Origin: Candidatus Oxydemutatoraceae bacterium
GTDB taxonomy: Bacteria; Pseudomonadota; Gammaproteobacteria; Poriferisulfidales; Oxydemutatoraceae
Direction: 5' to 3'
Length of the DNA: 64,000 nt
Assembly (NCBI GenBank): GCA_965218975.1
Contig: OZ244717.1
Coordinates: forward strand, 1,152,001 to 1,216,000
Below the pieces are notes generated by a model. That model worked only from the letters and a program-made list of their open reading frames with translations. It did not search any database and was not told the DNA's origin. The position numbers were made by a program, and so were the translations under genes. This document shows, in pieces, positions 12,184-64,000 of the stretch (the stretch's first letter is position 1; every line of letters starts with the position of its first letter).

Positions 12184-12433
12184 GTATATGATGATCAATT
12201 GTCTTTTCGCAGTATCATCTATAGCAACTCAGGCGATGCTGCGTAATCCCGATGGCGTTTTGTTCGGTTCTTATGCTATTCCTTAAAAACAGAGAACATA
12301 GAAGTTTTTTTCACTTCTTTCGAGTCGGTGTACGATGCCACCCTAAATGGGATTTTTGAAGATCTTCTGGGGAAGCGTTCGGCAGTAACATTCGGATCGG
12401 TGCTTTCTGTCCGTTGCCGGCATGAGGGCGGTG

Positions 12434-12692
12434 TAGGGTGAGACGCGCTCGGAAAACCGATCGGTTTTCAGCGGCGAACGACCCGACAAGGACGTCGAGG
12501 CTGGCGCTTATTGACAGAACCAAGTCTCGTCATGGACGAGCAGGGTGAGACGCGCTCGGAAAACCGATCGGTTTTCAGCGGCGAACGACCCGACAAGGAC
12601 GTCGGGGCTGGCGCTTATTGACAGAACCAAGTCTCGTCATGGACGACAGGCACTTTGCCGACAATCCGGCAGCAAACACAAAATGGTTTCAT
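12434..12692 (-). repeat. Two tandem 107-bp repeat units plus tail
   Basis: Units start at 12434 and 12541 (YAGGGTGAGACGCG...CTCGTCATGGACGA), period 107. Confidence 0.97.
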
Positions 12693-13030
12693 CAGCTCAA
12701 AGACTTTACTGCTGCCGAAATTCTGCCAGGCGCAGGAATGCGGCTGCGTTGCGGCTGTTACAGCGGTTGGTTGCCACTGCTATTGCCATTCGGGTATAGA
12801 CATCGATGGCCGTTAAGACGTAGCGGCGCACTCCGTGCTGATCACGCACAATCGTATCCAGGGCGATGCAATGCCCCGGATACTGTGCTTTGAAGTGTTT
12901 CGGCTTGCGTGCCCTGTAACGGCGCTTAAACGGTCGTTTTGTTTGTCCTTTGGCATTCAGCCGCTGCGGAATACAGCGTATTTTATCCGGCGCATCTGCG
13001 ATCAGGCGCGCAATCGTGCGGACACTCGGG

Positions 13031-13289
13031 CAGGGTGAGACGCGCCCGGAAAACCGACTGGTTTTCAGCGGTGAACGACCCGACAAGGACGTCGGGGCTG
13101 GCGCTTATTGACAGAACCAAGTCTCGTCATGGACGAGCAGGGTGAGACGCGCCCGGAAAACCGATCGGTTTTCAGCGGCGAACGACCCGACAAGGACGTC
13201 GGGGCTGGCGCTTATTGACAGAACCAAGTCTCGTCATGGACGACAGGCACTTTGCCGACAATCCGGCAACAAACACAAAACGGTTTCAT
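13031..13289 (-). repeat. Two tandem 107-bp repeat units plus tail
   Basis: Units start at 13031 and 13138; they lie between the transposase codons for KPFC and PCPSV. Confidence 0.97.
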
Positions 13290-13334
13290 CAGCTCAAAGA
13301 TTTTACTGCTGCCGAGATTCGGATAAGCCTGGCG

Positions 13335-13483
13335 CAGGGTGAGACGCGCCCGGAAAACCAATTGGTTTTCAGCGGTGAACGACCCGACAAGGACGTCGGG
13401 GCTGGAGCTTGTTGACAGAACCCAGTCGCGTCATGGACGACAGGCACTTTGCCGACAATCCGGCACAAGCGCAAAACGGTTTC
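13335..13483 (-). repeat. Single repeat unit, variant B
   Basis: Same unit with GAAAACC-AATT-GGTTTTC and GGAGCTTGTTGAC substitutions. Confidence 0.95.
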
Positions 13484-14171
13484 GTGCTGAATCGGTTGCG
13501 GCCAGACCCGCTGGCGCCTCTTACGCGGCGCTTTGCTGCGATCATGTAAGGCGCTGAGGCCAGTGCAGCGATAACGCCGGCGCCAGCGGTACAAAGTACT
13601 GCGACCGATCTTGAATGCGTTCGGGAGTTACAACCCTCCCAAAATAATAGGGCATCATATTTCTGTTGAGCCGTTGTGTTCATGAGCCTCTATTTTTGAA
13701 GCAAAATTGGCTATTTTATAGAAACCTTTGATGCGGTGGCCGATGTGCTGATATTGCATATCGGTTACCTTTTTGAGTCGTGCCGTGAATCCCACATGTA
13801 TCTGGCACTGTACAGTGTCCAATACATCCCGGACAAATGAGGGAGTGTCGGGTAATGACTTGAACGACACAGTGTCCGACATGCTTGGCATCGGCTTTGC
13901 GATTGAGACGCGGGGAGTATTTTCTTTTAATGACACCGAATTAGTGTAGCAGTTACCTAATCACTTCATTAAATGTGTTAGTATTAAAAAGGGAGGATAA
14001 GCGATTAGAAAATCTCCTATCCTTCAAGCCAACAGATTTCGAACAAGCGATTGACTGCTAGCTTCCACTAGTAAAATTCCTCTGAGCGTGTACTTTAAAT
14101 ATTCAACCGGAACGGAAAAATTCTTTTTGGACGGCGATATCGCAGTTTTAGGTTTCGTAGTTTCCGTTGCA

Positions 14172-15080: not shown

Positions 15081-15100
15081 TTAGACCTCCGGTTTTTTAT

Positions 15101-18388: not shown

Positions 18389-18432
18389 TTATTTTTTCCA
18401 TATCGTGAGTTTAAAAGAATCTGTTTTTTCGC

Positions 18433-31156: not shown

Positions 31157-32635
31157 CGTCTGAATGCCAAAGGACAAACAAAACGACCGTTTAAGCACTG
31201 CCGCACGCGCAAGCTGCAACACTTCAAAGCACAGTTATCCGGGGCAATCCGGGGCATTGCATCGCAAATAGATACGATTGCGCGTGATCGGCACGGAGTG
31301 CGCCGCACTATATTAACGGTGTACGTGTCCGGAGACATAGATGTCTATACCCGTATGGCAACGGCAACCGGCCGCTGTAACAACTGCCGCATGCTGCATT
31401 CCCGCGCTTGACCTCGGCGGTGCTGCCGCAACCGGTAAAATACATCCTGACCGACAACGGCAGCGCGTTTCAAAGGCAGTTTGCCCGGCTCATCCGGGAA
31501 TCACCTGCGATCGAGCAACGGCCGATCGACCCTAAGTGTCTAAAGATGAACGCGCACGTCGAACGGTTTAACTGTACCGTTCGGCGCACCGTCTTGGAAG
31601 ATCGGATTGATTATGCAAAAGACCTGCTATTCACCGACACGCAAGTATTCAATAACCGGTTGTGAAACCGTTTTGTGTTTGTTGGCGGGTTATCAGCACA
31701 GTACTTGTCATCCATGACGGGACTTGGTTCTGTTAATCAGCGCCAGCCCCGACGTCCTTGTCGGGTCGTTCGCCGCTGAAAACCGATCGGTTTTCCGGGC
31801 GCGTCTCACCCTGACCGACAACGGCAGCGCGTTTCAAAGGCAGTTTGCCCGGCTCATCCGGGAATCACCCGTGATTGTGCAGTGGCTGACCTATCTCAAG
31901 TGTCCAAAAATGAACGCGCATATCGAGCGCTTCAACCGCACCGTCCAAAAAGATTGTACCGATCATGCAGAAGACCTGCTATTCGCCGATACGGAAGCAT
32001 TCAATGACCGGTTATGAACCCGTTTTGTAGTTTGTTGGCAGGTTATTAGCACAGTACTTGTCATCCATGACGGGACTTGGTTCTGTTAATCAGCGCCAGC
32101 CCCGACGTCCTTGTCGGGTCGTTCGCCGCTGAAAACCGATCGGTTTTCCGGGCGCGTCTCACCCTGCTCGACAACGGCAGCGCGTTTCAAAGGCAGTTTG
32201 CCCGGCTCATCCGGGAATCACCTGCGATCGAGCAACGGCCGATCGACCCTAAGTGTCTAAAGATGAACGCGCACGTCGAACGGTTTAACTGTACCGTTCG
32301 GCGCACCGTCTTGGAAGATCGGATTGATTATGCAAAAGACCTGCTATTCACCGACACGCAAGTATTCAATGACCGGTTGTGAAACCGTTTTGTGTTTGTT
32401 GGCGGGTTATCAGCACAGTACTTGTCATCCATGACGGGACTTGGTTCTGTTAATCAGCGCCAGCCCCGACGTCCTTGTCGGGTCGTTCGCCGCTGAAAAC
32501 CGATCGGTTTTCCGGGCGCGTCTCACCCTGCACCGTCCTCATGCCGGCAACGGACAGAAAGCACCGATCCGAATGTTACTGCCGAACGCTTCCCCCGAAG
32601 CCCTTCAAAAATCCCATTTAGGGTGGCATCGTACA
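31157..32635 (+). mobile_element. Locus B: 5'-truncated family-1 IS481 remnant with triplicated catalytic-core segment
   Basis: RLNAKGQTKRPFK fragment; LTDNGSAF...KMNAH.ERFN.T three times, each followed by a repeat; ends at right TIR ...GGGTGGCATCGTACA (32635). Confidence 0.88.
31664..32530 (+). repeat. Three repeat cassettes (31664-31813, 32016-32170, 32381-32530) separated by about 200-bp transposase segments
   Basis: GAAACCGTTTTGTG...GCGCGTCTCACCCTG three times, with locus-specific SNPs (CACAGTACTTGTCATCC, CTGTTAATC). Confidence 0.96.
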
Positions 32636-32716
32636 CATCATTCACTGGGGTTGCAATCCCCGATACAATCGCTCCTGACTCACCACCCGAAGTGCCAAAT
32701 GTTATGGACCTATACA
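32636..32716 (+). mobile_element. Right end of a family-2 IS481 element
   Basis: Encodes HHSLGLQSPIQ...CQMLWTYT; closely matches about 53734-53814; ends ...TATACA. Confidence 0.85.
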
Positions 32717-33534: not shown

Positions 33535-36459
33535 TTATATTTCCTGACGTTTGTTTTTCGGATCATAAAATGGTATCTCAACGACATAGGCAGTGGTAAT
33601 AGTTCCGCAGCTAAGTTTAATATCTATACTCATACCGAGCTCTGTATTTGCCTCGGCATACGCTAGACCGATTATTTTGTTCAGAGTGGGTGAATACGCA
33701 ACCGATGTGATATGTCCGACTATCTTTTCACCATTTAAGATAAGATTAGATTCCTTAGGGATCTTGTTGCGTATTTGTTCAATTGTGAAGCCTACCAGTT
33801 TGCGATCGTATGGATGCTTATCAATGAGCTGCAATGAACGTCCGCCTACAAAGAAAGGTTTCTTTTTAGCGATAGCCCAAGTCATCTGCACTTCTTGCGG
33901 AGTAGTCATGGCATCGGTATCTTGACTGACAATAATGTGACCTTTTTCTAAGCGCAACGATCGTTGCGCTTCGATACCGACCGGTTGAATGTCATGTTTT
34001 TTTCCGGCTTCTAGCAAGATATCCCACAGCGCTTCACCCTGTGAATATGGCACATGGATTTCATAGCCCAATTCTCCGACAAAACCAACGCGTAGTAAGC
34101 GCGCGGGAATATTCGCAACCGTACCGCTTCGAAGCGCTAAATAAGGAAAGCCTTCCGTTGATAAATCAATGTCGTTGCAAACTCTTTTTAGTACTTCGCG
34201 AGCCTTGGGGCCGGCGATATTTACGCCTGCATACGCCGCTGTTACGTTAGTAACGTCTACGTCTAAGCACCATTGAGCGTTCCACCACAGCATAGTACGG
34301 TGCACGTTATCCACGCCGCCTGTCGTTGCAGTGACATAAAAATGTTCATCGCCGAATCGGCAAGCAACGCCATCGTCAATGATAGTTCCCGCTGTATTGG
34401 TCATTAACAAATAACGGACGGTATTAATTTTTTGCTTTGCGTAAGCGAAGGTGTATATACGGTTTAGAAATTCCGCTGCGTCCGGCCCGCGAATTTCAAG
34501 TCCGCCTAAAGTAGAAACGTCAATTAAACCTACGTTGTTGCGGATGGCTAAGTTTTCATCACGTACGCACTGTTCACGGTTTTGTTTTGCGCCATAATAA
34601 GCGGGGCGCCACCAAAGCCCCGCAGGTATCATTTTGGCGCCGGCTTCCAGATGCCGATGATGCATTGCGGTGAAGCGTTCCGGTTCAAAACGGCGACCTG
34701 CAATTACACCTAGTTTTTCCGCACGAAAGGGCGGACGTGCCGTGGTCACACCTATTTCCGCAACAGTGCGCCGCGACTCGTTAGCGACTAAACGTGCCGT
34801 AGCTAATGCAGAGTGACGACCTTGAGAAGGTCCCATACCCACTGTTGAGTAACGTTTTACCAGTTCGAGTTCCGAGTATCCGTCTTTATAAGCGTTGATA
34901 ATATCGGCAAATTGCACATCTTCGTCTAGGTCGACAAATTCCTTACCTTGCGGATGAGCAAAGATAGGCCACGGATGGTTAATATTTGTATATGAAGTGA
35001 TGGAATCAGTTTGTATAGGGATGGTATTTTTTACAGCAAGCCTTAAATGATTGCACACAGTTTGTGCCGCTCGCTTACCGGACTCAAACAATGCGCTTAG
35101 TTCATTGGCACTATCGGCAGCTCCGGCTAGGTGTAGGCATTTTGGCAGCTGCGTAATGGAGAACATGGCAGTTTCATCATCATACGAAATTTTACCGCCG
35201 GCCTGTAGAGCCAGTTGATAAGTAGGGGTAAAACCTACCGAGACGGACAAAAGATCGCAATTATAACGCTTGGATTCATTTGCGCATTGCCCTTGGGCGA
35301 TTATTTTGCGCAGCTCCACTTCATTAATATGATTTTTATCCGCTCGAGGTTTTGCGGCATAGACTGTGTATCCGTGATAAACCGTTATGTTTAAATCACG
35401 TATTTTTTCATATAATAGCAAGTGGGCCGGAGATTCGCGTAAGTCTGCGATGGCTGCGACTTCTACCCCATGTTCTATTAAATCTAATGCGACAGCGTAA
35501 CCATAATCGCCCGCGGTTAGCACTACGGCACGTTTGCCGGGCCGAACGCCGTATAAGCGAATTAAACGCTGTGTGGCAGAACCAAGTAATACACCTGGAA
35601 GATCATTATTATGAAAGATTGCAGGCTGTTCCATGTTTCCGGAAGCAAGAATCATTTGCTTAGCGCGTAACTTGTACATGCGGTTCCCGTTGATTATTGG
35701 CAGCCAATTATCGGCAAACCACCCGTTACATACCGAATTAGTCATTACCTCAATGTTGGGGTGTTTAATAATGGCTTCAATAAAGTCATTGCGCAAAGCG
35801 GGGGCGATTGTCGCTTCGGCATCAAAACGCGCGTAATTTAACGAACCGCCTAAAATTGGTTCTTGTTCTATGAGTACGACTTCCGCGCCTGCTTCGGCTG
35901 TAGTTAGAGCGGATTTCAATCCGGCCGGACCACCGCCTATCACTGCCACATCACAAAACTTGTAGCTTTTATCGTAATATTCATGTGCTGTATTTTGGTT
36001 TACACATCCAAGTCCGGCGCGTTTTCGCACGATCGGTTCCCAGAAGTTTTGCCATATCCCTCTAGGACGAAAGAACGCTTTATAATAAAACCCTACCGGT
36101 AAAAATTTCCCGATAAAATTTATTTTTGTTTCTTTATCGTTTTCTAAACTGCCTGTATAGTTTTGCCCGCTAACTTTTAAGTTCGGAGAAATTTTGCGGC
36201 GGTCTGCCGCCACGTTCGGCTCATTCTCAAGCTGAACCAGTGTATTGGCTTCAAGTCCGGCCATCGACATCACTCCGCGGGGGCGATGGTATTTAAATGA
36301 GCGCGATATTAACCAAACATCATTTGCCGCCAGCGCGCTGGCGATGGTATCTCCTAATAGGCCTGTGTAAGTTTGGCCCTCAAAACTAAAGACAATTGGC
36401 TTATCGTGATCGATAAGTAAACCAGCCGGTTTTTGTAAACGATTGGATATGGTTTCCAT
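33535..36459 (-). CDS. mgdC: N-methylglutamate dehydrogenase/sarcosine oxidase alpha-type subunit
   Basis: GDTIASAL, RSFKYHRPRG, VIGGGPAG, KRYSTVGMGPSQG, C-terminal GcvT-like domain (DVSTLG, GELGYE, LRLEKG). Confidence 0.88.
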   Translation of the reverse strand: METISNRLQKPAGLLIDHDKPIVFSFEGQTYTGLLGDTIASALAANDVWLISRSFKYHRPRGVMSMAGLEANTLVQLENEPNVAADRRKISPNLKVSGQNYTGSLENDKETKINFIGKFLPVGFYYKAFFRPRGIWQNFWEPIVRKRAGLGCVNQNTAHEYYDKSYKFCDVAVIGGGPAGLKSALTTAEAGAEVVLIEQEPILGGSLNYARFDAEATIAPALRNDFIEAIIKHPNIEVMTNSVCNGWFADNWLPIINGNRMYKLRAKQMILASGNMEQPAIFHNNDLPGVLLGSATQRLIRLYGVRPGKRAVVLTAGDYGYAVALDLIEHGVEVAAIADLRESPAHLLLYEKIRDLNITVYHGYTVYAAKPRADKNHINEVELRKIIAQGQCANESKRYNCDLLSVSVGFTPTYQLALQAGGKISYDDETAMFSITQLPKCLHLAGAADSANELSALFESGKRAAQTVCNHLRLAVKNTIPIQTDSITSYTNINHPWPIFAHPQGKEFVDLDEDVQFADIINAYKDGYSELELVKRYSTVGMGPSQGRHSALATARLVANESRRTVAEIGVTTARPPFRAEKLGVIAGRRFEPERFTAMHHRHLEAGAKMIPAGLWWRPAYYGAKQNREQCVRDENLAIRNNVGLIDVSTLGGLEIRGPDAAEFLNRIYTFAYAKQKINTVRYLLMTNTAGTIIDDGVACRFGDEHFYVTATTGGVDNVHRTMLWWNAQWCLDVDVTNVTAAYAGVNIAGPKAREVLKRVCNDIDLSTEGFPYLALRSGTVANIPARLLRVGFVGELGYEIHVPYSQGEALWDILLEAGKKHDIQPVGIEAQRSLRLEKGHIIVSQDTDAMTTPQEVQMTWAIAKKKPFFVGGRSLQLIDKHPYDRKLVGFTIEQIRNKIPKESNLILNGEKIVGHITSVAYSPTLNKIIGLAYAEANTELGMSIDIKLSCGTITTAYVVEIPFYDPKNKRQEI

Positions 36460-36482
36460 GTAAATGTATTTTGAATATTCCG

Positions 36483-36758
36483 CTAGAAATCAATGCGTTT
36501 GGAAAAAATTCTATCGGCAGGATAAGTCTTTAAAATTTCATCGGTCAAGGTATTGCGTTCCGCAATAAACCAATAAGAAGTGGCGACATGACACCACCAT
36601 TCGCGAACAACGCCTGCTGTATTGTTAGACATCCACATAAAATCCGCCCACTGTTCGTCGTTCATGCTTTTCGGATTATGTGTGTCCGCTACTTCGCCGA
36701 AACAGACAAACTCTGAGATATTGCGCGGACCATTTAAAGGGCAATCCATTATTTTCAC
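36483..36758 (-). CDS. mgdB: N-methylglutamate dehydrogenase/sarcosine oxidase delta-type subunit
   Basis: KIMDCPLNGPRNISEF, EWWCH, ERNTLTDEI. GTG start at 36758 with AGAGGA RBS. Confidence 0.85.
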   Translation of the reverse strand: MKIMDCPLNGPRNISEFVCFGEVADTHNPKSMNDEQWADFMWMSNNTAGVVREWWCHVATSYWFIAERNTLTDEILKTYPADRIFSKRIDF

Positions 36759-36768
36759 GTCATATCCT

Positions 36769-38010
36769 CTAATGACTAGCGGCCGTCGCACCGGCTTCGT
36801 TCGATAGTTTGAAAGTTTTAAAGCGATTCAATTTAAACGGTTCGATCATTTCTACAGATTTTTCTTGTGCAATGGTTTCTGCCATACATTTTCCGGCAAT
36901 GGGAGTTGCTTTGAACCCCCAAGTTCCCCAACCGGCATCAAGCCAATAATTTTTTATCGGACTTTCACCCATGATGGGGCTGTAATCTGGGGTCATGTCG
37001 GTAATGCCCGTCCATTGGCGTAATAATTTAAGTTGTGCAAAGAAAGGAAATAATTCCAATGTGTGCGCAATAAGGCTTTCTTTAAGATCAAGGGTGGATC
37101 GTGTCGAGTACAATTCATAAGGGTCGGAGCCACCTCCTATCAGAATTTCTCCTCGTGCCGTTTGTGAAATGTAAACATGCAGCCCGGCCGAGCTTACCAA
37201 CGGATCAAGAAACGGTTTAATCGGTTGTGTCACCATAGCTTGCAATGGGTAACTGCGAATAGGTAGTAAAATTCCGGCCATTTTTGCCACGACTGAACTC
37301 ATGCCGGCAACGGCCTGTACCGTATGCCCGCATTGAATAGTGCCTCGATTCGTTTCTACAGCTGTTACTTTGCCGGCATCAATCCGGAAGCCTGTTACTT
37401 CTGTGCGCTGATGAATTTCAACACCTAGTTGCGCAGCACGCAGCGCATAGCCCCACGCAACCGCATCATGTCTTGCGATTCCTCCATCGCGGTGCCATAA
37501 CCCTGCTAAGATGGGGAAACGTGCATTCTTATCCATATTTAAGCATGGTACGAGTTCACGGATTTGTTTTCGATCAATCATTTCCGAACGTACACCCAAG
37601 TGTTTGTTTACTTCTGCACGCAAAGTAAAAGTACGCACGCTGGCGTCATTGTGGGCTAAAGTCAGTTGACCGCGTTGCGAGTACATTTGGTTATAGCCTA
37701 ATTCGTTGGACAAGTTTTTAAATAGGTCTACTGACGCTTTGTAAAATGCAACGGACTCCGGAGAAATGTAATTGGAGCGAATCACTGTGGTATTGCGCGC
37801 AGTATTTCCACCACCGACATAACCTTTATCCAGTACGACAATATTGGCAATGCCGTGATAACGAGCTAAGTGATAAGCGATAGACAGGCCGTGGCCGCCG
37901 GCGCCTATAATAGCTATATCGTATGATTTTTTTAAATCACGAGATGCGGGGATATCGCGGCGCGCGGGATATTTAGAAGCAAAACCGTATTTTAATAAAC
38001 CCCATGGCAT
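36769..38010 (-). CDS. mgdA: N-methylglutamate dehydrogenase/sarcosine oxidase beta-type FAD subunit
   Basis: IIGAGGHG, GGGNTARNT, ARHDAVAWGY, GWGTWGFKATP, C-terminal AASH. Features fit the Mgd clade as I recall it. Confidence 0.85.
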   Translation of the reverse strand: MPWGLLKYGFASKYPARRDIPASRDLKKSYDIAIIGAGGHGLSIAYHLARYHGIANIVVLDKGYVGGGNTARNTTVIRSNYISPESVAFYKASVDLFKNLSNELGYNQMYSQRGQLTLAHNDASVRTFTLRAEVNKHLGVRSEMIDRKQIRELVPCLNMDKNARFPILAGLWHRDGGIARHDAVAWGYALRAAQLGVEIHQRTEVTGFRIDAGKVTAVETNRGTIQCGHTVQAVAGMSSVVAKMAGILLPIRSYPLQAMVTQPIKPFLDPLVSSAGLHVYISQTARGEILIGGGSDPYELYSTRSTLDLKESLIAHTLELFPFFAQLKLLRQWTGITDMTPDYSPIMGESPIKNYWLDAGWGTWGFKATPIAGKCMAETIAQEKSVEMIEPFKLNRFKTFKLSNEAGATAASH

Positions 38011-38036
38011 GGATATCTCCTAAATTTCCGCTTTTT

Positions 38037-39710
38037 TTAAAACAACCCTATTATTTCATTATTGGCATCAATATCAATGTTATTAGCTGCAGGCTTTTTG
38101 GGTAAACCAGGCATCGTCATAATGTGCCCGCATAGCACCACTAAGAATTCAGCGCCGGTGGATAAATATACATCTTTAATCGGCACCACATGTCCTGAAG
38201 GAGCACCTAACAGATCGGGGTCCGTTGAAAATGAATATTGTGTTTTGGCTATGCAAACGGGGTAGTGCCCATAACCTTCCTCTTGGTAACGCTTAATCTT
38301 ATTGCGAACTTTTATTTCAGCGATGACATTGCTCGCGCCATAAATTTTGTTTGCCACTTTTGTAATTTTTGTCCATAACGTATCGTTCTCTTCGTAGACA
38401 AAATGCAAATCGGGCGGCACTTGAGCAATTTCATCAATCACGGTTTTAGCCAGATCTTCTGCGCCCGTCCCTCCGTAAGCCCAGTGATTGCATTCGATCG
38501 TTTTTACATTATGGTGCGCCATTTTTTCTTGCAATAGTGAAATTTCAGCATTGGTGTCCGAGGTGAATCTGTTAATCGCTACGACACAAGGTAGGCCAAA
38601 ATGATTACGAATATTATTTATGTGGCGTTCTAAATTTGGAATACCTTTTTCCAACGCGGCAAGATTTTCACGCTCAACGTCTTTTAATTTCACATGGCCA
38701 TGGAACTTTAAAGCGCGAATGGTTGCCACAATCACGACTAAAGATGGTTGCAAGCCTGCTTTCCTGCATTTGATGTCGAGAAATTTTTCCGCTCCGAGGT
38801 CCGCGCCAAAGCCAGCTTCGGTCACCACATAATCAGCGAGTTTTAAAGCAGTTTTGGTGGCAATTACAGAGTTGCAACCATGTGCGATATTGCCAAAGGG
38901 CCCGCCGTGTATAAACGCTAGGTTATTTTCTAGAGTTTGGACTAAATTTGGCTTAATCGCATCTTTTAATAAAGCAGTCATCGCCCCCTGTGCGTTAATA
39001 TCACGTGCATGGATTACATCGCCATTACAGTTATATCCGCAAATGATATTGCCTAGCCGGTTTCGCAAGTCTCGGATAGAAGTTGTAAAACACAAGATCG
39101 CCATAATTTCTGATGCGGTGACTATGTCGTAACCGGTTTCGCGTGGATGACCATTTGCGACGCCGCCGATGCCTACGATGATTTTACGTAAGGCACGGTC
39201 ATTTAAATCTATAACACGTTTCCATGAGATGCGTCGGTCGTCAAAACCTAGCGGATTGCCCTGCTGTAGATGATTGTCGATGAGAGCTGCGAGTAAATTA
39301 TGCGCTAAGCTGATGGCATGAAAATCCCCTGTGAAATGTAAATTGATATCTTCCATGGGAACAACTTGTGCGTAACCCCCTCCCGCAGCTCCGCCTTTCA
39401 TGCCAAAACAAGGCCCTAAAGATGGTTCGCGTATACAAATTAGCGTGTGTTTGCCGATACGGTTGAGTGCATCACCTAACCCGATCGTTGTGGTTGTTTT
39501 GCCTTCACCCGGAGGGGTAGGGCTGATCGCGGTGATTAAAATAAGTTTTCCGTAGTTTCGTTCCTCCAGAGAATGAATGAAATCTAGTGAAAGCTTGGCC
39601 TTATAGTGGCCGTACGGTTCTAAGTGTCGATCTTCTATATTAAGTTTTTTGCCCGCAAGACGAACAATATTTTGCATCTCCGCGTGTTTTGCAATGTCGA
39701 AGTCAGTCAT
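38037..39710 (-). CDS. fhs: Formate--tetrahydrofolate ligase
   Basis: [50 protein letters not shown]. Confidence 0.97.
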
Positions 39711-39969
39711 TTTTATGCTTCTGTTCAAAATTATTTTACTTGTTGAATTTCAGAGCATGTGTTATTACACTTAGCCAGAGTTCAATTCATAGCTTAAAAG
39801 ATAGATTGATCAAATGCAGGGCATCATTCTTTGTACTACCATTATGGTCAATTGCTCGAAGGAAATACTCCTTAATGAGTAACAAAGGAATCGAATAAAT
39901 TCACTATATTATGTACATTATGTACGCGACGTTCTCTTATCTTAATTGTAGGACTAAAATTGAACAAAT

Positions 39970-50823: not shown

Positions 50824-50937
50824 TTTGCCGTAGCCATAGTATTCCAACGATGCCCGGTTTCGGCGGACCCGGTAAAGCCCCCGGATTCGATAGCCTATGT
50901 GTTGGATTTGCAAGGCTGCTTCTCCTGTCGGGAGGAG
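50824..50937 (-). mobile_element. Truncated left end of a family-2 IS481 element
   Basis: Reverse complement of about 52377-52490 (encodes QIQHIGYRIRG); cut where the family-1 TIR begins. Confidence 0.85.
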
Positions 50938-51236
50938 TGTACAGTGCCAGATACATGTGGGATTCACGGCACGACTCAAAAAAGTGACCGATATGCAATA
51001 TCAGCACATTGACCACCGCATCAAAGGTTTCTATAACGAGCCAAATTTGCTTCAAAAATAGAAGCTCATGAGTACAACTGCTCAACAGAAACACGATGCT
51101 CTCATTTTGGGAGGGGTGTAACTCCGAACGCATTCAAGGTCGGTCGCAGTACTTTGTACCGCTGGCGCCAGCGTTATCGCCGCACTGGCTTCAGCGCCTT
51201 ACATGATCGCGGCAAAGCGCCACGTAAGAGGCCCAG

Positions 51237-51562
51237 CGGATTGTCAGCAAAGTGCTTGTCGTCCATGACGAGACTTGGTTCTGTCAATGAGCGCCAGCCC
51301 CGACGTCCTTGTTGGGTCGTTCGCCGCTGAAAACCGATCGGTTTTCCGGGCGCGTCTCACCCTGCGCTAGGCTTATCCGAATCTCGGCAGCAGTAAAATC
51401 TTTGAGCTGATGAAACCGTTTTGTGTTTGTTGCCGTGTTGTCGGCAAAGTGCCTGTCGTCCATGACGAGACTTGGTTCTGTCAATAAGCGCCAGCCCCGA
51501 CGTCCTTGTCGGGTCGTTCGCCGCTGAAAACCGATCGGTTTTCAGCGGCGCGTCTCACCCTG
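51237..51562 (+). repeat. Two single repeat units (ending 51364 and 51562) separated by a short transposase segment
   Basis: The segment between them encodes AYPNLGSSKIFELMKPFC. Confidence 0.95.
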
Positions 51563-51985
51563 CCCGAGTGTCCGCACGATTGTGTGCCTGATCGCGGATG
51601 CGCCGGATAAGATCTGTTATAAGATGGCGCTGTATTCCGCAGCGTCTGAATGCCAAAGGACAAACAAAACGACTGTTCAAGCGCCGTTGCAGGGCACGCA
51701 AGCCGAAACACTTCAAAGCACAGTATCCGGGGCATTGCATTGCCCTCCTGGATACGATTGTGCGTTATCAGCACGGAGTGCGCCGCTACGTCTTAACGGC
51801 CATTGATGTCTATACCCGTATGGCAACACGGGAATCACCCGTGATTGAGCAGTGGCTGACCTATCCCAAGTGTCCAAAAATGAACGCACACATCGAGCGT
51901 TTCAACCGCACTGTCCAAGAAGATTGTATCGATCATGCAGAAGACCTGCTATTCGCCGATACGGAAGCATTCAATGATTGATTAT

Positions 51986-52242
51986 GAAACCGTTTTGTGT
52001 TTGTTGGCGGATGCTCAGCAAAGTGCCTGTCGTCCATGACGAGACTTGGTTCTGTCAATAAGCGCCAGCCCCGACATCCTTGTCGGGTCGTTCGCCGCTG
52101 AAAATCGATCGGTTTTCCGGGCGCGTCTCACCCTGCTCGTCCATGACGAGACTTGGTTCTGTCAATAAGCGCCAGCCTCGACGTCCTTGTCGGGTCGTTC
52201 GCCGCTGAAAACCGATCGGTTTTCCGGGCGCGTCTCACCCTG
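51986..52242 (+). repeat. Tail plus two tandem 107-bp units
   Basis: Unit ends at 52135 and 52242. Confidence 0.97.
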
Positions 52243-52352
52243 CGCCGCCCTCATGCCGGCAACGGACAGAAAGCACCGATCCGAATGTTACTGCCGAACG
52301 CTTCCCCCGAAGCCCTTCAAGAATCCCATTTAGGGTGGCATCGTACAAAATT

Positions 52353-53814
52353 TGCATAAGCTCAGAAACATTTGGCACTCCTGCCGACAGGAGAAGCAGC
52401 CTTGCAAATCCAACACATAGGCTATCGAATCCGGGGGTTTTACCGGGTCGCTAAAATCGGGCATAGTTGGGATACTATGACTTACGATGCAAAACAACGA
52501 CTCAAAATTCTCACCTTCCAGGAAAACCATGGCATGGCCGCTGCCTGCGATGCATTCAAGGTCAGTCGCCGTACCTTGTATCGGTGGCGGCAGACCTTGA
52601 GGGAAGCCGGACACAACGTAGCGGTACTGGTGCCGCGTTCGACCGCACCGCATCGCCGACGGCAGGCGCGGTGCCCATCCGGTTTGGTGCAAGCAATCCG
52701 CCGTCTGCGCGAGCGGTATCCGAACTTAGGTAAACAGCCGGTGCATAAGTTGCTTGAGCCGTGGTGCGAGCGCCACGGCCTGACCACCCCCAGCGTCTCG
52801 ACTATCGGGCGCATCATCGCCGCAGCGCCTTGATGCCCGCGGTCGGCGCCGACCGTACCGCCGGATCAACAGGTAAAGTCTTTGAGCTGATGAAACCGTT
52901 TTGTGTTTGTTGGTGAATGCTCAGCAAAGTGCCTGTCGTCCATGACGAGACTTGGTTCTGTCAATGAGCGCCAGCCCCGACGTCCTTGTCGGGTCGTTCG
53001 CCGCTGAAAACCGATCGGTTTTCCGGGCGCGTCTCACCCTGCTCGTCCATGACGAGACTTGGTTCTGTCAATGAGCGCCAGCCCCGACGTCCTTGTCGGG
53101 TCGTTCGCCGCTGAAAACCGATCGGTTTTCCGGGCGCGTCTCACCCTGCTCGTCCATGACGAGACTTGGTTCTGTCAATGAGCGCCAGCCCCGACGTCCT
53201 TGTCGGGTCGTTCGCCGCTGAAAACCGATCGGTTTTCCGGGCGCGTCTCACCCTGCTCGTTCATGACGAGACTTGGTTCTGTCAATGAACGCCAGCTCCG
53301 ACGTCCTTGTCGGGTCGTTTGCCACTGAAAACCGATCGGTTTTCCGGGCGCGTCTCACCCGCCGCTACGTGTTCACCTTCATTGCCCCGCGCTCGCGCGT
53401 TGCGTTTGCGTGGGCTTCCACTACCCGCAGCAGCCGGCGCAGCGCACACGCCCTGCAGCTGTTGTGTGAACTGGTGCCGAAACCGATCAACTATATTTTG
53501 TCCGACAACGGCTCGGAGTTTATGAAGGACTTCGAGACCGAGTTGAAACAGCGCCGGACCACCCACTGGTGGACTTATCCGAAGTCGCCGAAGATGAACA
53601 GTTGCTGCGAGCGTTTCAATCGCACCTTGCAGGAGTCATTCGCGGACTACCACGAGGATCTTCTGTTCGCCGACGTGGCCTACTTTAACCGGGAATTGGC
53701 CCAATGGCTGGTGTTTTACAACACCCAGCGCCCCATCATTCACTGGGGTTACAATCCCCGATACAATCGCTCTTAACTCACCATCCGGAGTGCCAAATGT
53801 TATGGACTTATACA
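52353..53814 (+). mobile_element. Locus C2: disrupted family-2 IS481 element
   Basis: TIRs TGCATAAGCTCAGAAACATTTGGCACTCC and (reverse) TGTATAAGTCCATAACATTTGGCACTCC. HTH half (VSRRTLYRW, YPNLGK, PSVSTIGR) and rve half (SDNGSEF, ERFNRTLQE) are separated by a repeat array. Confidence 0.92.
52873..53360 (+). repeat. Family-1-derived leader plus four tandem 107-bp units
   Basis: Unit ends at 53041, 53148, 53255 and 53360; near-identical copies. Confidence 0.98.
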
Positions 53815-54519: not shown

Positions 54520-54532
54520 TTGGCAGGCTTGT

Positions 54533-56175: not shown

Positions 56176-57230
56176 TGTACGATGCCACCCTAGATGGGAT
56201 TTTTGAAGGGCTTCGGGGGAAGCGTTCGGCAGTAACATTCGGATCGGTGCTTTCTGTCCGTTGCCGGTATGAGGACGATGCAGGGTGAGACGCGCCGCTG
56301 AAAACCGACCGGTTTTCAGCGGCGAACGACCCGACAAGGACGTCGGGGCTGGGGCTCATTGACAGAACCAAGTCTCGTCATGGACGACAAGCACTTTGCC
56401 AGGTTGCGGCAGTACCGACACTATACACGCCAGGGTCAGGCGCAGGAATGCGGCTATTACAGCGGTTGGTTGCCACTGCTATTGCCATTCGGGTATAGAC
56501 ATCAATGGCCGTTAAGACGTAGCGGCGCACTCCGTGCTGATAACGCACAATCGTATCCAGGGCGATGCAATGCCCCGGGTACTGTGCTTTGAAGTGTTTC
56601 GGCTTGCGTGCCCTGCAACGGCGCTTAAACGGTCGTTTTGTTTGTCCTTTGGCATTCAGCCGCTGCGGAATATAGCGCATTTTATCCGGCGCATTTGCGA
56701 TCAGGCGCGCAATCGTGCGGACACTCGGGCAGGGTGAGATGCGCCCGGAAAACCGATCGGTTTTCAGCGGCGAACGACCCGACAAGGATGTCGGGGCTGG
56801 GGTTCATTCGCAGAACCAAGTTTCATCATGGGTGAGATGCGCCCGGAAAACCAATTGGTTTTCAGCGGTGAACGACCCGACAAGGACGTCGGGGCTGGAG
56901 CTTGTTGACAGAACCCAGTCGCGTCATGGACGACAGGCACTTTGCCGACAATCCGGCACAATCCGCCGACAACACGGCAACAAACACAAAACGGTTTCAT
57001 CAGCTCAAAGATTTTACTGCTGCCGAGATTCGCCAAAGCTGCCGAAATTCTGCCTGGCGCAGGGTGAGACGCGCCCGGAAAACCGATCGGTTTTCAGCGG
57101 CGAACGACTCGACAAGGACGTCGGGGCTGGCGCTCATTGACAGAACCAAGTCTCGTCATGGACGACAAGCACTTTGCTGACAATCCGCCGGCGCCTCTTA
57201 CGCGGCGCTTTGCCGCGATCATGTAAGGCG
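56176..57230 (-). mobile_element. Locus E: decayed family-1 IS481 element with four internal repeat units, left end lost
   Basis: Right TIR at 56176; fragments KAPRKR, NLGSSKIFELMKPFC, PCPSVRTI...HCIALDT...ATNRCNSR. Repeats start at 56281, 56730, 56830 and 57060. Confidence 0.88.
56730..57000 (-). repeat. Repeat dimer with 98-bp junction (second unit variant B) plus duplicated tail
   Basis: GGGTGAG at 56732 and 56830. Confidence 0.93.
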
Positions 57231-57311
57231 TGTACGATGCCACCCTAAATGGGATTCTTGAAGGGCTTCTCCTCCTGTGGCAGGAGTGCCAAATGTTTCT
57301 GAGCTTATGCA
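57231..57311. mobile_element. 81-bp chimeric mini-element: family-1 right end fused to family-2 left end
   Basis: TGTACGATGCCACCCTAAATGGGATTCTTGAAGGGCTTC joined to CAGGAGTGCCAAATGTTTCTGAGCTTATGCA. Confidence 0.82.
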
Positions 57312-57358
57312 TCCAAGAATTTGGTACGTTTCCGGACATATAAATATAATGTAAGTAT

Positions 57359-58165: not shown

Positions 58166-58181
58166 TAACGACCCATTTGTA

Positions 58182-58856: not shown

Positions 58857-58862
58857 CGGGAC

Positions 58863-59717: not shown

Positions 59718-59722
59718 ACTTT

Positions 59723-60085
59723 TTACGAGTGCTTGCAGATATAAAATTTGAATATTTGCATGTTTTCTTTGGGTTTACCTAAGGGCACAATGTGGTCGGC
59801 GCCAATCTTGCCGGCAAGATTACGTGCTTCGATCAATAGCATTTCAGTCCGCTTTTCAGGTGTCCGGCGAAAGAAAACTTGCGCTTTGCTTAAAGTAATT
59901 TGACTGTTGGCCAGATGTTTGCATTGCACCGCTTCAATTCCAGGAACGACTTGTACCAAGTTGCCGTCGTAGGACAGCTTGGGGGCACATCCGGTACTAA
60001 GCAAAGTCATCGTAAGTAAAGCAATGTGTCGGAAATAGGTCACGATACTTGCGATTGAATTTGCCGAATTAAATATTCGGCGCAT
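59723..60085 (-). CDS. Small putative lipoprotein (DUF4156-like)
   Basis: LLSTGC lipobox-like motif, EARNLA...GADHIV, paired Cys; start uncertain. Confidence 0.6.
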   Translation of the reverse strand: MRRIFNSANSIASIVTYFRHIALLTMTLLSTGCAPKLSYDGNLVQVVPGIEAVQCKHLANSQITLSKAQVFFRRTPEKRTEMLLIEARNLAGKIGADHIVPLGKPKENMQIFKFYICKHS

Positions 60086-61761: not shown

Positions 61762-61875
61762 AAAGAAATTTAAATGGATTTATTTTAGCAGATTTATCGG
61801 TTTCCTTTTAGAATAAGCAAATATGACAGCGCACGGCATTGTGGCGCGTTTTAACGATATATGATAGTAATAATA

Positions 61876-62945
61876 TGATGTCTTTGTTTGATCGTTGGCG
61901 ACAACAATATCTTGAAAACCCACAAGTTGTATTTCTGGTTTTTTTTCTCGTTTCAGTTTTCAGTTTGATTATTTTTGCCGGGGACATTCTTGCACCGATT
62001 CTTGCAAGTTTAGTTATCGCGTATGTGCTGGACGGCGGAATCACTTTTCTAAAAAGGTATCAAGTACCACGCATAATGGCCTTATTATTGATTTACCTGA
62101 CGTTTATTGCTGCGGGATTTGTTATCGCGATGTTCATTATTCCGTTACTATCGGAGCAGATTGCTCATTTTTTAAGGGATCTGCCGGAGATTATCGCACG
62201 CGGGCGCAATGTGTTGATGCGTTTGCCGAATCACTATCCGGAATTTATCAGTGCCGAATATCTCAACCAGATTATCGCTGGGTTTCGCAATGAGATTACT
62301 GGTCTTGGACAACAAATGCTGAGTATTTCACTGTCGTCGGTTGCAGGCTTTATCAGTTTTTTGATTTATGTGGTTTTGGTGCCGCTGCTAATCTTCTTTT
62401 TTCTAAAAGATAAAGAACAGATCCTTGGTTGGGCAAATACATTATTACCTAAGAAAGAAAGTCAAGCGCTGACACATACGGTTTGGTCGGAAGCGAATGC
62501 GGGGATTGCCAGTTATATTCGCGGTAAGCTGATTGAAATTGTAATTATTTGGGCGGTGAGTTGGATTCTTTTCGCTATACTAGGTTTGAAATACGCGCCG
62601 CTATTATCGTTTCTTGTCGGAATTTCAGTAATTGTTCCGTTTTTAGGCGCGGCAGTTGTCGCCATTCCGGTCGTGATGGTCGCTTACGCGCAATGGGGAA
62701 TGGAGGCACATTTTTTCTATGTGGTCATCGCGTACACTGTTCTGCAGTTTTTGGATGGCAATGTACTGGTACCACTATTGTTTTCCGAAATAGTTAATTT
62801 GCATCCGATTGCAATCATTAGCGCGGTGTTAGTATTCGGCGGTATTTGGGGAATATGGGGTGTCTTTTTTGCTATTCCGTTGGCAACGTTAGTGAACGCC
62901 GTATTGAAAGCTTGGCCGCGCGGACGGCATGCCGTAGTATCATAA
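61876..62945 (+). CDS. perM: AI-2E family transporter (PerM-like)
   Basis: Multi-TM, YIRGK..EI, QFLDGNVLVPLLFSE..NLHP, GVFFAIPLATLV. Start taken at ATG 61876. Confidence 0.88.
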
Positions 62946-62999
62946 AAGCAGTCTATTTTAAGAGAATTAAAAGTAGCTGCCCGCTTTCATTTGCAAGTC

Positions 63000-63467
63000 T
63001 TACTTTACTACTTCCTTTAGCGCTTGCAGCACTTCTTCCACGTGACCTAAAACTTTCACTTTACGCCATTCCCTGCGTAAAACGCTTTTAGCGTCAAACA
63101 GGAAAGTGCTACGTTCAATGCCGAAATATTTCCGACCGAACATACTTTTCTTTTTTAAGACACCAAATAATTTACACAATTGCTCATCGGTATCTGAGAT
63201 TAGCTCAAATGGAAAATTTTGTTTGGTTTTAAATTTCTCATGCGCAGCAATGCCGTCGCGTGAGACCCCGAATATGTGCGCTTTACTGCGTGAGAAGATG
63301 CTGATTTTATCGCGGAAATCCTGTCCTTCTTTTGTACATCCGGGCGTGTTGTCTTTAGGGTAGAAGTAGAGGATAAGCGGATGGCCTTTATGTGCGGCGG
63401 ATTTAAAGTCTGTTCTTCCTGTTGCAGGAAGAGTGATAGCGGGAAGTTTTTCACCGACTTTAATCAT
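63000..63467 (-). CDS. bcp: Peroxiredoxin Bcp/PrxQ family
   Basis: YFYPKDNTPGCT, GVSRD, GIERSTF. Start at ATG 63467. Confidence 0.93.
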   Translation of the reverse strand: MIKVGEKLPAITLPATGRTDFKSAAHKGHPLILYFYPKDNTPGCTKEGQDFRDKISIFSRSKAHIFGVSRDGIAAHEKFKTKQNFPFELISDTDEQLCKLFGVLKKKSMFGRKYFGIERSTFLFDAKSVLRREWRKVKVLGHVEEVLQALKEVVK

Positions 63468-63508
63468 GCCATGGATTCTATTGATGGACCCGCGGAATGT
63501 AAAGAGCT

Positions 63509-64000
63509 TGTACGATACCACCCTAAATGAGATTTTTGAAGGGCTTCGGGGGAAGCGTTCGGCAGTAACATTCGGATCGGTGCTTTCTGTCCGTTGCCGG
63601 CATGAGGACGGTGCAGGGTGAGACGCGCCCGGAAAACCGATCGGTTTTCAGCGGCGAACGACCCGACAAGGACGTCGGGGCTGGCGCTCATTGACAGAAC
63701 CCAGTCTCGTCATGGGTGAGACGCGCCCGGAAAACCAATTGGTTTTCAGCGGTGAACGACCCGACAAGGACGTCGGGGCTGGGGCTTGTTGACAGAACCC
63801 AGTCGCGTCATGATGGACGACAGGCACTTTGCCGACAATCCGGCACAATCCGCTGACAACACGGCAACAAACACAAAACGGTTTCATAATCAATCATTGA
63901 ATGCTTCCGTATCGGCGAATAGCAGGTCTTCTGCATGATCGATACAATCTTCTTGGACCGTACGGTTGAAGTGCTCGTTATAAGCATTCATTTTGGGGTA
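63509..64000 (-). mobile_element. Locus F: family-1 IS481 remnant running off the window
   Basis: Right TIR TGTACGATACCACCCTAAATGAGATT at 63509; HRPHAG C-terminus; FNRTVQEDCIDHAEDLLFAD fragment near the edge. Confidence 0.88.
63614..63887 (-). repeat. Repeat dimer with 98-bp junction (second unit variant B) plus duplicated tail
   Basis: GGGTGAG at 63616 and 63714; same architecture as 56730-57000. Confidence 0.93.

Follow-up and report, generated by a model that had tools for sequence, protein, structure and literature searches.

Sequence comparison places the 107-bp unit that recurs in the window (the whole 64,000-nucleotide stretch of DNA analysed here), together with a leader of ~37 nt, in a family of non-coding, multi-hairpin dispersed repeats of ~110–160 nt, which is present in many genomes of the class Gammaproteobacteria. 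In this genome, every detected copy lies within decayed IS481-family elements or miniature derivatives thereof. The account towards which we lean, taken as a whole, is that this family repeat rides IS481 and was spread by 3'-anchored template switching and slippage.

Organization of the repeat in the window and the genome

The reference unit (window positions 53042–53148, (+)) was used as the BLASTN query. This gives exactly 22 copies in the window, in the five loci where the first-pass annotation had placed them: five copies at 12435–13440 (-), three at 31708–32530 (+), eight at 51259–53360 (+), four at 56281–57165 (-) and two at 63614–63812 (-). Two sub-patterns of the unit match the window 15 and 18 times when ≤3 mismatches are allowed, with 0 expected from 100 shuffles. 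In addition, Tandem Repeats Finder reports 107-bp arrays, a variant with a 98-bp period, and a 364-bp unit, present three times, which consists of a transposase piece and the repeat.

The genome is a single contig of 2.081 Mb and is 99.4% complete. It contains 335 unit HSPs by BLASTN, which are divided into 306 full, 14 5'-truncated, 5 3'-truncated and 10 palindrome-only matches. The copy count of ~317 takes in HSPs of ≥60 nt, and these 317 fall into 192 arrays. The repeat occupies ~1.6% of the genome (32,785 of 2,081,000 bases). Recognisable IS481 sequence lies ≤300 bp from 172 of the 192 arrays, and the remaining 20 are within longer mosaics or adjoin short IS-end remnants. An nhmmer profile of copies from other genomes finds 317 matches here, each overlapping a unit found by BLAST. 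All copies had been thought to be co-oriented with the transposase. This holds for the window's 22, but not genome-wide, where 174 of 177 scorable arrays are co-oriented and three are opposite, the closest of these ~600 bp beyond the window end; the other 15 of the 192 arrays have no IS feature within 400 bp.

Contigs from public runs (four studies) carry the repeat and IS pieces, none being long enough to span a locus. Repeat/IS joints, one empty site among them, are seen again in the contigs of other studies' runs. The units do not group by site or locus, 228 of 300 having their nearest neighbour in a different locus; the history of the units is therefore reticulate and unreadable as a simple tree.

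The IS481 elements that carry the repeat

The pieces of sequence between the repeats in the window match HTH_32/LZ_Tnp_IS481 and rve/rve_3, with HTH_28 matched as well. In line with the claim that they mostly keep gene order, they align in that order to P0001, a full-length, 354-aa IS481-type transposase with rve, rve_3, HTH_32 and LZ_Tnp_IS481 domains. Both an rve-type DDE core and an N-terminal HTH/leucine-zipper region are present, and 22 of 26 paired copies of the IS481 subfamily IS-B begin TGTA and finish GTACA. The identification as IS481 from its domains and TGT...ACA ends is therefore sound. Several repeat-bearing IS-B copies, at separate loci, are flanked by 5-bp direct repeats (target duplications).

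The window holds IS-B copies and remnants and one copy of a second IS481-family subfamily, IS-A. An IS-B copy with both ends, delimited by BLASTN, tblastn to P0001 and end probes, spans 12330–13814 (-). It retains transposase pieces for P0001 residues 1–102 and 127–230 and has five units (12435–12646, two; 13031–13243, two; 13335–13440). A rearranged IS-B remnant at 31157–32714 (+) contains the 364-bp unit in three copies, each a piece of P0001 residues ~225–307 plus the leader and one repeat, with the repeats at 31708–31813, 32061–32166 and 32425–32530. These are followed by an IS-B right end (32575–32634) and then an IS-A right end (32654–32714). The IS-B copy at 50935–52346 (+) has TGT...ACA ends and four units (51259–51364, 51456–51562 and two at 52030–52242) among gene-ordered transposase pieces. 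The IS-A copy spans 52351–53812 (+) and reads, in order, N-terminal HTH part (52402–52926), a stretch copied from IS-B plus the leader (about 52876–52935), four tandem units (52936–53360) and C-terminal rve part (53360–53749). One or more IS-B remnants with partial IS ends, at 56177–57311 (-), carry four units (56281–56387; two with the 98-bp period at 56730–56933; 57060–57165) and a piece for P0001 residues 127–283. Lastly, 63510–64000 (-) holds an IS-B right end (63510–63569), two units of 98-bp period (63614–63812) and a transposase piece that extends past the window end.

No intact IS481 transposase is left in the genome, and no ORF of ≥200 aa has both transposase halves; the longest open frames over rve_3/rve matches are 231–277 aa (one with a stop) and 246 aa. 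Thus, the statement that every long IS copy is inactivated extends from the window to the whole genome. An intact, repeat-free IS481 was looked for as well, and no intact transposase was found, though individual empty sites exist. Among 24 matches, the closest full-length transposases are uninterrupted single ORFs of 312–392 aa. IS481-derived miniatures that carry the repeat also exist, e.g., at 152960–153930 of this genome (G000).

Anatomy of the unit

The reference unit forms three hairpins, the last of which is an 18-bp perfect palindrome, and has stop codons in all three sense frames. The 107-bp core is indeed what is repeated, as first described, but the true unit is longer, with a conserved leader of ~37 nt ahead of nearly every array. 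This leader, which forms the conserved 5' portion of the element, lies at 52899–52935 (+) for the reference array, and in other copies it contains short, 10–11-nt sub-repeats. Folding of single units is only modestly above that of shuffles (z of -1.8 to -2.3), and about half of this genome's copies have a disrupted hairpin 1 and outer stem. The element itself lacks terminal inverted repeats, the ends of the leader-plus-unit not being inverted copies of each other. Target duplications of fixed length, as in a MITE, are absent as well; the change in the target spans a 45-nt loss to a 26-nt duplication.

The wider repeat family

A hairpin-2 pattern matched four loci in Pseudohongiella/Pseudomonadales MAGs, which have at least 88, 45 and 40 copies; these numbers are lower bounds, as ≤40 candidates were scored per MAG. 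With MAFFT, the window units align to the foreign copies from the last 7 leader bases through the 3' end. A covariance model, R1, was built from 41 foreign copies, which are intergenic repeats of ~125 nt in Pseudohongiella-like genomes, with the sequences of the present genome excluded. All 22 window units are recovered by R1 across model positions 1–123 (30–62 bits, E of 5e-12 to 4e-5), and the final 7 bases of the leader fall within the match. Hairpin 4 of the foreign copies is absent from the units of this genome.

In the R1 alignment, 96.8% of cells are paired, compared with 29–46% when the partners are slid. Changes on both sides of a pair occur in 73 cells versus 22.2 ± 3.4 in shuffles, and 0 of 500 shuffles reach 73. 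In this foreign-copy model, the loop sequences are conserved while the stems covary, and both hairpin loops contain an invariant three-base motif, the complement of which is GGA. Counts of wobbles versus mismatches favour neither strand.

The family is present in 20 of 150 sampled genomes at E≤1e-4, or 19 of 149 without the unpublished genome G195, and each positive genome is from a different family of the class. Among relatives from the same family, 2 of 18 have matches. The foreign copies are mostly intergenic and often adjoin tRNA genes; IS481 is not their setting. The claim that copies occur only in IS481 is thus correct for this genome but does not hold for the homologues elsewhere. Judged from these homologues, the repeat is not IS481-specific by nature, and their location outside IS481 in other genomes marks it as an element that once existed independently and came into the IS from outside. 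The idea of a hyperparasite homing into IS481 is retained in its nesting and loses its intrinsic homing.

A search of Rfam 15 with the window gave no match at the gathering score; one array gave no match at E≤1, and four foreign loci matched tRNA alone at E≤0.1. The view that no IS481 internal repeat of this kind has been described agrees with a limited literature search.

Joints and traces of spread

Empty versions of all four sites are present in this genome (1, 2, 5 and 3 copies) and are uninterrupted coding sequence that matches P0001. By comparison, the filled sites lack 18–45 nt of native coding sequence in four places, which confirms that the repeat replaces coding sequence. The joints have microhomology of 2–8 nt; those of 2–4 nt are individually weak evidence. 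Leaders at secondary sites carry 18 to ~100 nt of coding sequence that is native to one source site, and this coding flank is carried inside IS-A as well. The 3' end of the element is constant (14 HSPs are truncated at the 5' end versus 5 at the 3' end), and in the foreign copies the start point also varies and the final base is constant. Most copies within the IS lack a defined-end insertion.

Host DNA has been captured too: a 303-bp block, which comprises a host gene start and a partial unit, is present three times and is joined at 5 nt common to the unit's end. In the tRNA cases, 12–26 nt of the tRNA end are repeated directly past the last base of the element, with the same 2–3 bases standing before the native joint. 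At three loci, there is a nearly clean antisense insertion of the whole leader-plus-unit in an IS-A-like gene, and this class has more the appearance of true transposition. In one IS-B copy the presumed first site is empty although two later sites are occupied, so the proposed sequence of events, or the site taken as primary, may be mistaken. The other genomes yielded no exactly matching pair of empty and filled sites.

Proposed history and mechanism

Three origins had been offered in the first-pass annotation, and the best fit is a recombinogenic hairpin cassette that spread through copying akin to conversion, as joints fall at microhomologies, secondary copies have the flank of one source and host DNA was caught between copies. 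The process, the order of events and the first site, as given here, are reconstructed from sequence. One family copy would have entered an IS-B transposase gene at a point between the second HTH and the catalytic core, where it took the place of 19 nt and inactivated the gene. The dead, repeat-bearing IS would then have multiplied, either in trans via a now-lost transposase or through conversion among copies, making the IS the vehicle of the repeat. Subsequently, recopying within the IS family may have carried the cassette to three or more other positions in that gene, into the second IS481 subfamily and, on one occasion, into host DNA.

Each copied patch would stop exactly at the 3' end of the element, begin at a variable upstream point and be joined at a 2–8 nt microhomology, displacing 18–45 nt of the target. 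This could occur by template switching during replication or repair, where the folded element frees the nascent 3' end, which re-anneals at another place through its final few bases. The tandem arrays and the repeat-fragment-repeat blocks would then arise by slippage and by unequal exchange between units.

A broader and more speculative reading is that this class-wide family, with no enzyme of its own, consists of folded, self-priming cassettes that start templated insertion from their last few bases wherever replication or repair leaves an intermediate. Such a DNA-level analogue of retroposition would keep the 3' end constant, let the 5' end vary and duplicate or delete a little of the target. 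Here, it would act as a hyperparasite that survives solely by riding and destroying IS481, and its conserved loops, which are GGA on the reverse strand and match the CsrA consensus core in some copies, might turn the copies into portable protein-binding modules.

Alternative explanations

It is possible, although we consider it doubtful, that the repeat is a non-autonomous mobile parasite moved by some enzyme via a one-ended, 3'-anchored replicative route. IS481 genes would then be tolerated or favoured targets and the repeat a hyperparasite of the IS. Variants of a one-ended route are rolling-circle-like copying and target-primed copying from an intermediate of RNA or ssDNA. A fixed 3' end with variable duplications resembles retroposition or one-ended transposition. 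The end pattern seen here and in other genomes suits such a parasite, as do the variable 12–26 nt duplications at tRNA genes and the small target deletions in the IS. The co-carried upstream flank of the source, which is like 5' transduction, the clean antisense insertion at three loci, the conserved loops and covarying stems, as for a recognised structure, and the high copy numbers in several unrelated genomes also argue in its favour.

The enzyme searches argue against it. The screen for trans factors found no match in this closed genome to RVT_1 (PF00078), Y1_Tnp (PF01797), IS110, TnpB (PF07282) or Cas6 (PF01881). RVT_1, within the scope of the Pfam model, and Y1_Tnp are also unmatched in G041 and G042, high-copy genomes with dozens of repeat copies; the PF01797 control was positive in 6 of 14 genomes. 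An enzyme family outside those searched could be responsible. Moreover, the co-orientation of 174 of 177 arrays with the transposase is explained if homologous IS copies were aligned during copying but is left unexplained by free insertion, and the secondary copies derive from one source site.

Several named element types were also considered. A REP/REPIN system with a RAYT was rejected, as PF01797 is unmatched in G000, G041 and G042. The same was done for an IS200/IS605-derived element or TnpB guide-RNA scaffold (PF01797 and PF07282 unmatched in G000; upstream joint variable). For a bacterial SINE-like retroposon, PF00078 has no match in the same three genomes, and a defined-end transposon does not fit the joint anatomy. 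A CRISPR-like array was rejected because the 107-nt units are often spacerless, the "spacers" are in-order pieces of the surrounding gene and PF01881 is unmatched. The two genuine CRISPR arrays of the genome are located away from the repeat arrays, and none of their 77 spacers match the repeat or the IS.

Far less probable is that the units are functional RNA modules, in which a sense transcript is cut at the hairpins into IS481-silencing RNAs or antisense GGA loops bind a CsrA-type protein. The strong covariation of the family, the invariant loop motif with its GGA complement and the inactivity of all long IS copies are compatible with this. In addition, 85 of 300 units here and 6 of 41 foreign copies have a hairpin 2 whose reverse complement is identical to the ten-base core of the SELEX consensus for CsrA (PMC7652899). 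On the other hand, the wobble and mismatch counts pick no strand, two helices are disrupted in about half of the copies here and no Rfam family matches. The silencing array that had been proposed has no support, as the arrays lie within individual IS copies, the fragments between units are accounted for by duplication and deletion with no curated set, and both Cas6 and spacer matches are absent.

Finally, every copy here is in IS481-derived DNA and such repeats are difficult to assemble, but it is very improbable that an IS481-family element carries the unit natively, in a regulatory or passenger role, or that misassembly produced the mosaics, given that empty sites here are normal coding sequence, the closest full-length transposases (312–392 aa, among 24 matches) are uninterrupted, the unit has stops in every sense frame, foreign homologues lie outside any IS, the genome is a single contig, and repeat/IS joints and an empty site recur in run contigs from other studies.

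Relation to known repeat systems

ERIC/IRU and REP/BIME of enterobacteria are short, non-coding, dispersed hairpin repeats, which are mostly intergenic, vary in copy number with lineage and can be mosaic or tandem; REP sequences are also join points of tandem duplications. The present family is likewise made up of short, non-coding, dispersed repeats with conserved hairpins, mostly between genes, with lineage-dependent copy number and mosaic or tandem arrangements. It differs in matching no Rfam family, in having all of this genome's copies inside IS481 debris, and in that the unit has 4–5 helices over ~125 nt instead of a single palindrome and a RAYT-type Y1 gene was not found here or in two high-copy genomes. 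IS1397 and ISPpu9/10 are IS elements that insert into REP sequences. Here, too, structured repeats and an IS family are in close physical association, but the polarity is reversed, as the repeat is inside the IS gene and rides the IS.

BOX elements of Streptococcus pneumoniae are non-coding and modular, A-B(n)-C, with a tandemly iterated middle module. The present repeat is also non-coding and modular with an iterated middle; its sequence is unrelated, its host group is different, and BOX elements are not known to be nested in IS genes. Eukaryotic SINE/LINE retroposition and microhomology-mediated templated insertion leave a constant 3' end and a 5' end that varies, joint microhomology, target duplications or deletions of variable length and source flank. 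The repeat shares all of these features, whereas the host is a bacterium, no reverse transcriptase (RVT_1) was detected and the process is reconstructed. The BrickBuilt MITE of Porphyromonas gingivalis has a leader, a spacerless tandem core of a 23-nt unit and a tail within a miniature transposon, is always intergenic and has a narrow host range (PMC4596501). The repeat resembles it in this build and in its carriage by miniature transposons, but its unit is structured and of 107 nt, it resides in transposase genes and IS481 miniatures, and it has relatives outside transposons.

Significance

The family is a structured repeat with strong covariation, present in 20 of 150 genomes and new to Rfam and to the literature searched. 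This genome provides a natural case of a small repeat that lives only inside an insertion sequence, every long copy of which is inactivated, and it offers a clean setting in which to study parasite-on-parasite dynamics and the decay of IS elements. Together, the features of the joints (3' end, microhomology, flank, host capture and tRNA ends) point to a mode of spread for which no dedicated transposase is needed. If confirmed, such spread would bear on how ERIC- and REP-like repeats that lack a known mobilising enzyme multiply.

The repeat unit and its arrays

The first-pass annotation had placed 22 copies of a 107-bp folded repeat at five loci in the window, and all 22 were recovered there by BLASTN with a reference unit (window 53042-53148). 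The two halves of the unit gave 15 and 18 window matches at three mismatches or fewer, with 0 expected from 100 shuffles. Tandem Repeats Finder reported the 107-bp arrays, a variant with a 98-bp period and a 364-bp block, present three times, that comprises a transposase piece and one unit. The sequence between units matches HTH_32, LZ_Tnp_IS481, rve and rve_3, and the transposase pieces, as had been proposed, remain in gene order when aligned to P0001, a full-length IS481-type transposase of 354 residues taken from a protein collection. Two IS481 subfamilies are present: the abundant IS-B, with TGT...ACA ends (for example, window 50935-52346), and the rarer IS-A (window 52351-53812). In the tests applied, the host element has the features of IS481, save for an intact copy.

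A conserved sequence of approximately 37 nt (window 52899-52935), the leader, stands in front of almost all arrays and contains sub-repeats of 10-11 nt in varying number. The period of some arrays, about 152 nt, equals leader plus unit. The repeated element is longer than 107 bp, as the leader belongs with the unit; leader and unit or units together are called the cassette. None of the three sense frames of the unit is free of stops, and the unit is therefore neither a coding segment nor an intein-like insert. Translational bypass was also rejected, as a jump from the base preceding the unit to the unit's last bases would leave the downstream motif out of frame. ARAGORN found no tRNA in the window, and the unit matches no Rfam family.

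Among the host genes between the IS loci (window 33535-39728) are those for a sarcosine-oxidase-alpha-family protein and a formate-tetrahydrofolate ligase, a pair that points to metabolism of one-carbon compounds or methylated amines. Genes for leucyl- and prolyl-tRNA ligases and for a YhdP-family protein are also present in the window.

Distribution in the genome

The genome (G000), of which the window forms part, is a single 2.081-Mb contig rated 99.4% complete. BLASTN of the unit against it produced 335 HSPs: 306 full length, 14 truncated on the 5' side, 5 truncated on the 3' side and 10 that cover the palindrome only, on the other strand. Those of 60 nt or more, 317 in number, group into 192 arrays covering 32,785 bases: 109 arrays consist of one unit, 57 of two, and the rest have as many as seven. 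Array order is as assembled in the one contig; public-run contigs with the repeat are too short to span any locus.

The proposed confinement to IS481 stands for this genome but not beyond it, where copies are mostly intergenic. Here, recognisable IS481 protein homology or an IS end is found no more than 300 bp from 172 of the 192 arrays, and the remaining 20 lie within long mosaics or beside short IS-end remnants. A profile of the foreign relatives gave 317 matches in the genome, every one overlapping the BLAST units, so that no free copy was found. Co-orientation with the transposase, which had been claimed for the 22 window copies, holds in the whole genome for 174 arrays relative to the nearest IS feature, but three are opposite; 15 have no IS feature within 400 bp. 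The inactivation of the long IS481 copies is borne out, as no intact transposase is left in the genome. No ORF of at least 200 aa contains both transposase halves, and the longest open frames across rve or rve_3 matches in the genome are 231-277 aa. There are also miniature derivatives, in which arrays of leader and unit are flanked by IS-A ends only (G000:152960-153930).

The cumulative GC skew of the genome has its minimum near 270 kb and its maximum near 1.5 Mb; by this criterion, the sense strand of unit and IS is the leading strand in 56 of the 87 repeat-bearing loci. This moderate bias of the units could equally be the IS's own. The G+C content is 59-62% in the units, 52-56% in IS-rich stretches and 45% in the background, values that would be compatible with, and are not proof of, the import of units and IS together from a G+C-richer genome.

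Two CRISPR arrays lie outside the window, each beside Cas1: one of 73 repeats of 36 nt (G000:C1:349095-354309) and one of 7 repeats of 36 nt (G000:C1:1639893-1640291). The genome has two Cas1 genes, and one Cas1 match falls within a 581-aa open frame. None of the 77 spacers of the two arrays matches the 107-bp unit or IS481. In the large array, blocks of spacers are duplicated internally (for example, spacers 24-27 again as 50-51 and 34-35; 34-40 again as 44-49), so segmental duplication between repeats has occurred there too.

Joints between the cassette and IS481

In IS-B the cassette has four usual positions, after about residues 96, 120, 230 and 307 of P0001, and the genome retains empty, uninterrupted sites at these positions in 3, 1, 2 and 5 copies, respectively. 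Their translations agree with P0001 in length and motifs. Comparison of filled with empty sites shows that, at each of the four, the cassette stands in place of 18-45 coding nucleotides. The right-hand joint is invariably formed by the unit's last bases, and the native sequence has the same 2-5 bases there, while the left-hand joint is variable.

Copies at three of the sites and inside IS-A carry 18 to approximately 100 nt of coding sequence native to the fourth, that at about residue 120. As this upstream flank was carried along, the copies were pasted from one source site, and such carry-over would not be the behaviour of a transposon with defined ends. Host DNA has also been taken along. 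At G000:1034790-1035740, a 303-bp block is present three times; it combines a partial unit with the first part of a host gene and the DNA upstream of that gene, and its joint lies at five bases in common with the unit's end. The triplicated gene start adjoins an IS-B right end, and expression of the gene may be altered.

Inversion joints are present among the copies in the genome. Target duplications of 5 bp flank several IS-B copies that carry the repeat at separate loci. This means that transposition acted in trans on defective copies or, alternatively, that conversion supplied the units after insertion. The nearest neighbours of units are well mixed across sites and loci, so the history is reticulate and yields no order of events.

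Relatives outside IS481

Close copies of the unit were absent from 40 relatives searched by BLASTN, a 25-mer of the unit from collections of genome and metagenome contigs, and a second degenerate pattern from the metagenome contig collection; distant blastn of the leader-plus-unit stretch against plasmids returned nothing. Relatives were found by one pattern alone, of 22 bases over hairpin 2, which had matches at four loci, in MAGs labelled Pseudohongiella and Pseudomonadales. These MAGs contain an intergenic repeat of approximately 125 nt, with at least 88, at least 45 and at least 40 matches when 40 candidates were scored per genome; some copies are in tandem. The window units can be aligned to the foreign copies from the last seven leader bases through the 3' end. 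Common to both are hairpin 1, hairpin 2 with its flanks, hairpin 3 (a palindrome), an enclosing stem and the terminal bases; the window units differ in lacking hairpin 4 only. The upstream part of the foreign copies is leader-like too.

In an alignment of 41 foreign copies, RNAalifold predicted 32 pairs, 14 of them with compensatory changes. For the 28 pairs of five clear helices, 96.8% of the cells are paired versus 29-46% when the partners are slid, and both sides have changed in 73 cells versus 22.2 +/- 3.4 after shuffling, a value reached by 0 of 500 shuffles. A covariance model built from this alignment alone recovers 22 of 22 window units at full length (30-62 bits, E 5e-12 to 4e-5), with the best scores for the first unit of each array, which takes in the leader's end. 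Since a model made from foreign copies only finds every window unit, the 107-bp unit is, as judged by sequence and predicted fold, a member of this intergenic family.

Among 60 relatives, the model matched only two genomes, both from a single genus; they are 2 of the 18 relatives that belong to the same family. When 150 genomes were sampled, no two from the same family of the class, matches at E<=1e-4 were present in 20 (19 of 149 without one that is unpublished). With 23 candidates scored per genome, some of these reach at least 21 copies, with units in tandem; all copy numbers outside G000 are lower bounds.

At the loci read in other genomes the element is intergenic and often abuts a tRNA gene. 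It follows the gene for tRNA-Thr in L066 (genome G004, 1485-1660) and for tRNA-Ser in L072 (G167). In three further loci it is located 5' of the tRNA gene: tRNA-Lys in L067 (G008, 1380-1790), tRNA-Arg in L073 (G138, 1320-1650) and tRNA-Ser in L077 (G114, 1490-1620). In all five of these loci, which are from unrelated genomes, 12-26 nt of the tRNA end is duplicated straight after the element's last base, and G008 and G138 have tandem copies of the whole block of tRNA piece and element. The foreign copies start at different points and end at a constant base. Because this end pattern is the same as in IS481, the fixed 3' end, variable 5' end and return joint at a few shared bases are a trait of the family and not of IS481.

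The tRNA-Thr element of G004 is absent at the corresponding locus in G008, G012 and G016, where the downstream flank is not conserved. A single-copy locus in G042 is also filled in G043, and in G041 its place is taken by approximately 830 bp of different sequence that contains small ORFs (L084, G041:C1:615440-616360); this site seems to be an insertion hot spot. Neither locus, the former in this comparison and the latter against G043 and G041, supplied an exact empty/filled pair outside G000.

Mechanism of spread

Template switching during replication or repair is the best-supported reading of how the element spreads, as the joints would suggest. After synthesis of the last helix, the nascent strand could fold and its short unpaired 3' tail could re-anneal nearby. 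Re-annealing upstream would give a tandem duplication that includes flanking DNA, re-annealing downstream would give a deletion, and re-annealing on another IS copy would paste in a patch. If the target is essential, as with a tRNA gene, only the duplication outcomes would survive, and in a dispensable transposase gene deletions would survive too.

Template switching would require no enzyme of the element's own. Because of this, the model fits the lack of matches to RVT_1, Y1_Tnp, IS110-type, TnpB-type and Cas6 in G000; RVT_1 and Y1_Tnp were also without match in two high-copy genomes (G041 and G042), and in a search for Y2 transposases the control was silent. The same lack of RVT_1, Y1_Tnp, IS110-type and TnpB-type matches weighs against movement by a one-ended enzymatic route, a less probable alternative that three clean antisense insertions favour.

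That the unit might be a functional RNA or a CsrA-type binding module is a lead only. GGA is the complement of the three-base motif in both conserved loops (columns 11-13 and 57-59 of the foreign alignment; window 53084-53101, for example), and in 85 of 300 units of G000 and 6 of 41 foreign copies hairpin 2, read as its reverse complement, is identical to the ten bases at the core of the CsrA SELEX consensus (PMC7652899). However, no strand preference is seen, and counts of wobbles versus mismatches conflict between helices.

Classification and origin of the association

On the membership tests applied, the repeat is not a MITE, REP/RAYT element, CRISPR, IS200/IS605 derivative or retroposon. 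The unit behaves as a structured dispersed repeat of the class of ERIC, REP and BOX, and its nearest analogue in architecture among the literature compared is the BrickBuilt MITE (PMC4596501). The first-pass annotation knew of no internal repeat of this kind in IS481, and the literature searched likewise describes none; neither that literature nor Rfam holds a description of this repeat family. Three things are new: the family itself, a repeat that is confined to, and has destroyed, one IS family in one genome, and 3'-anchored joints that are consistent over unrelated genomes.

Free copies in G000 would have been lost or never present. The simplest account of the confinement to IS481 in this genome is historical: one insertion into an IS-B copy would have hitched the element to a multiplying vehicle.
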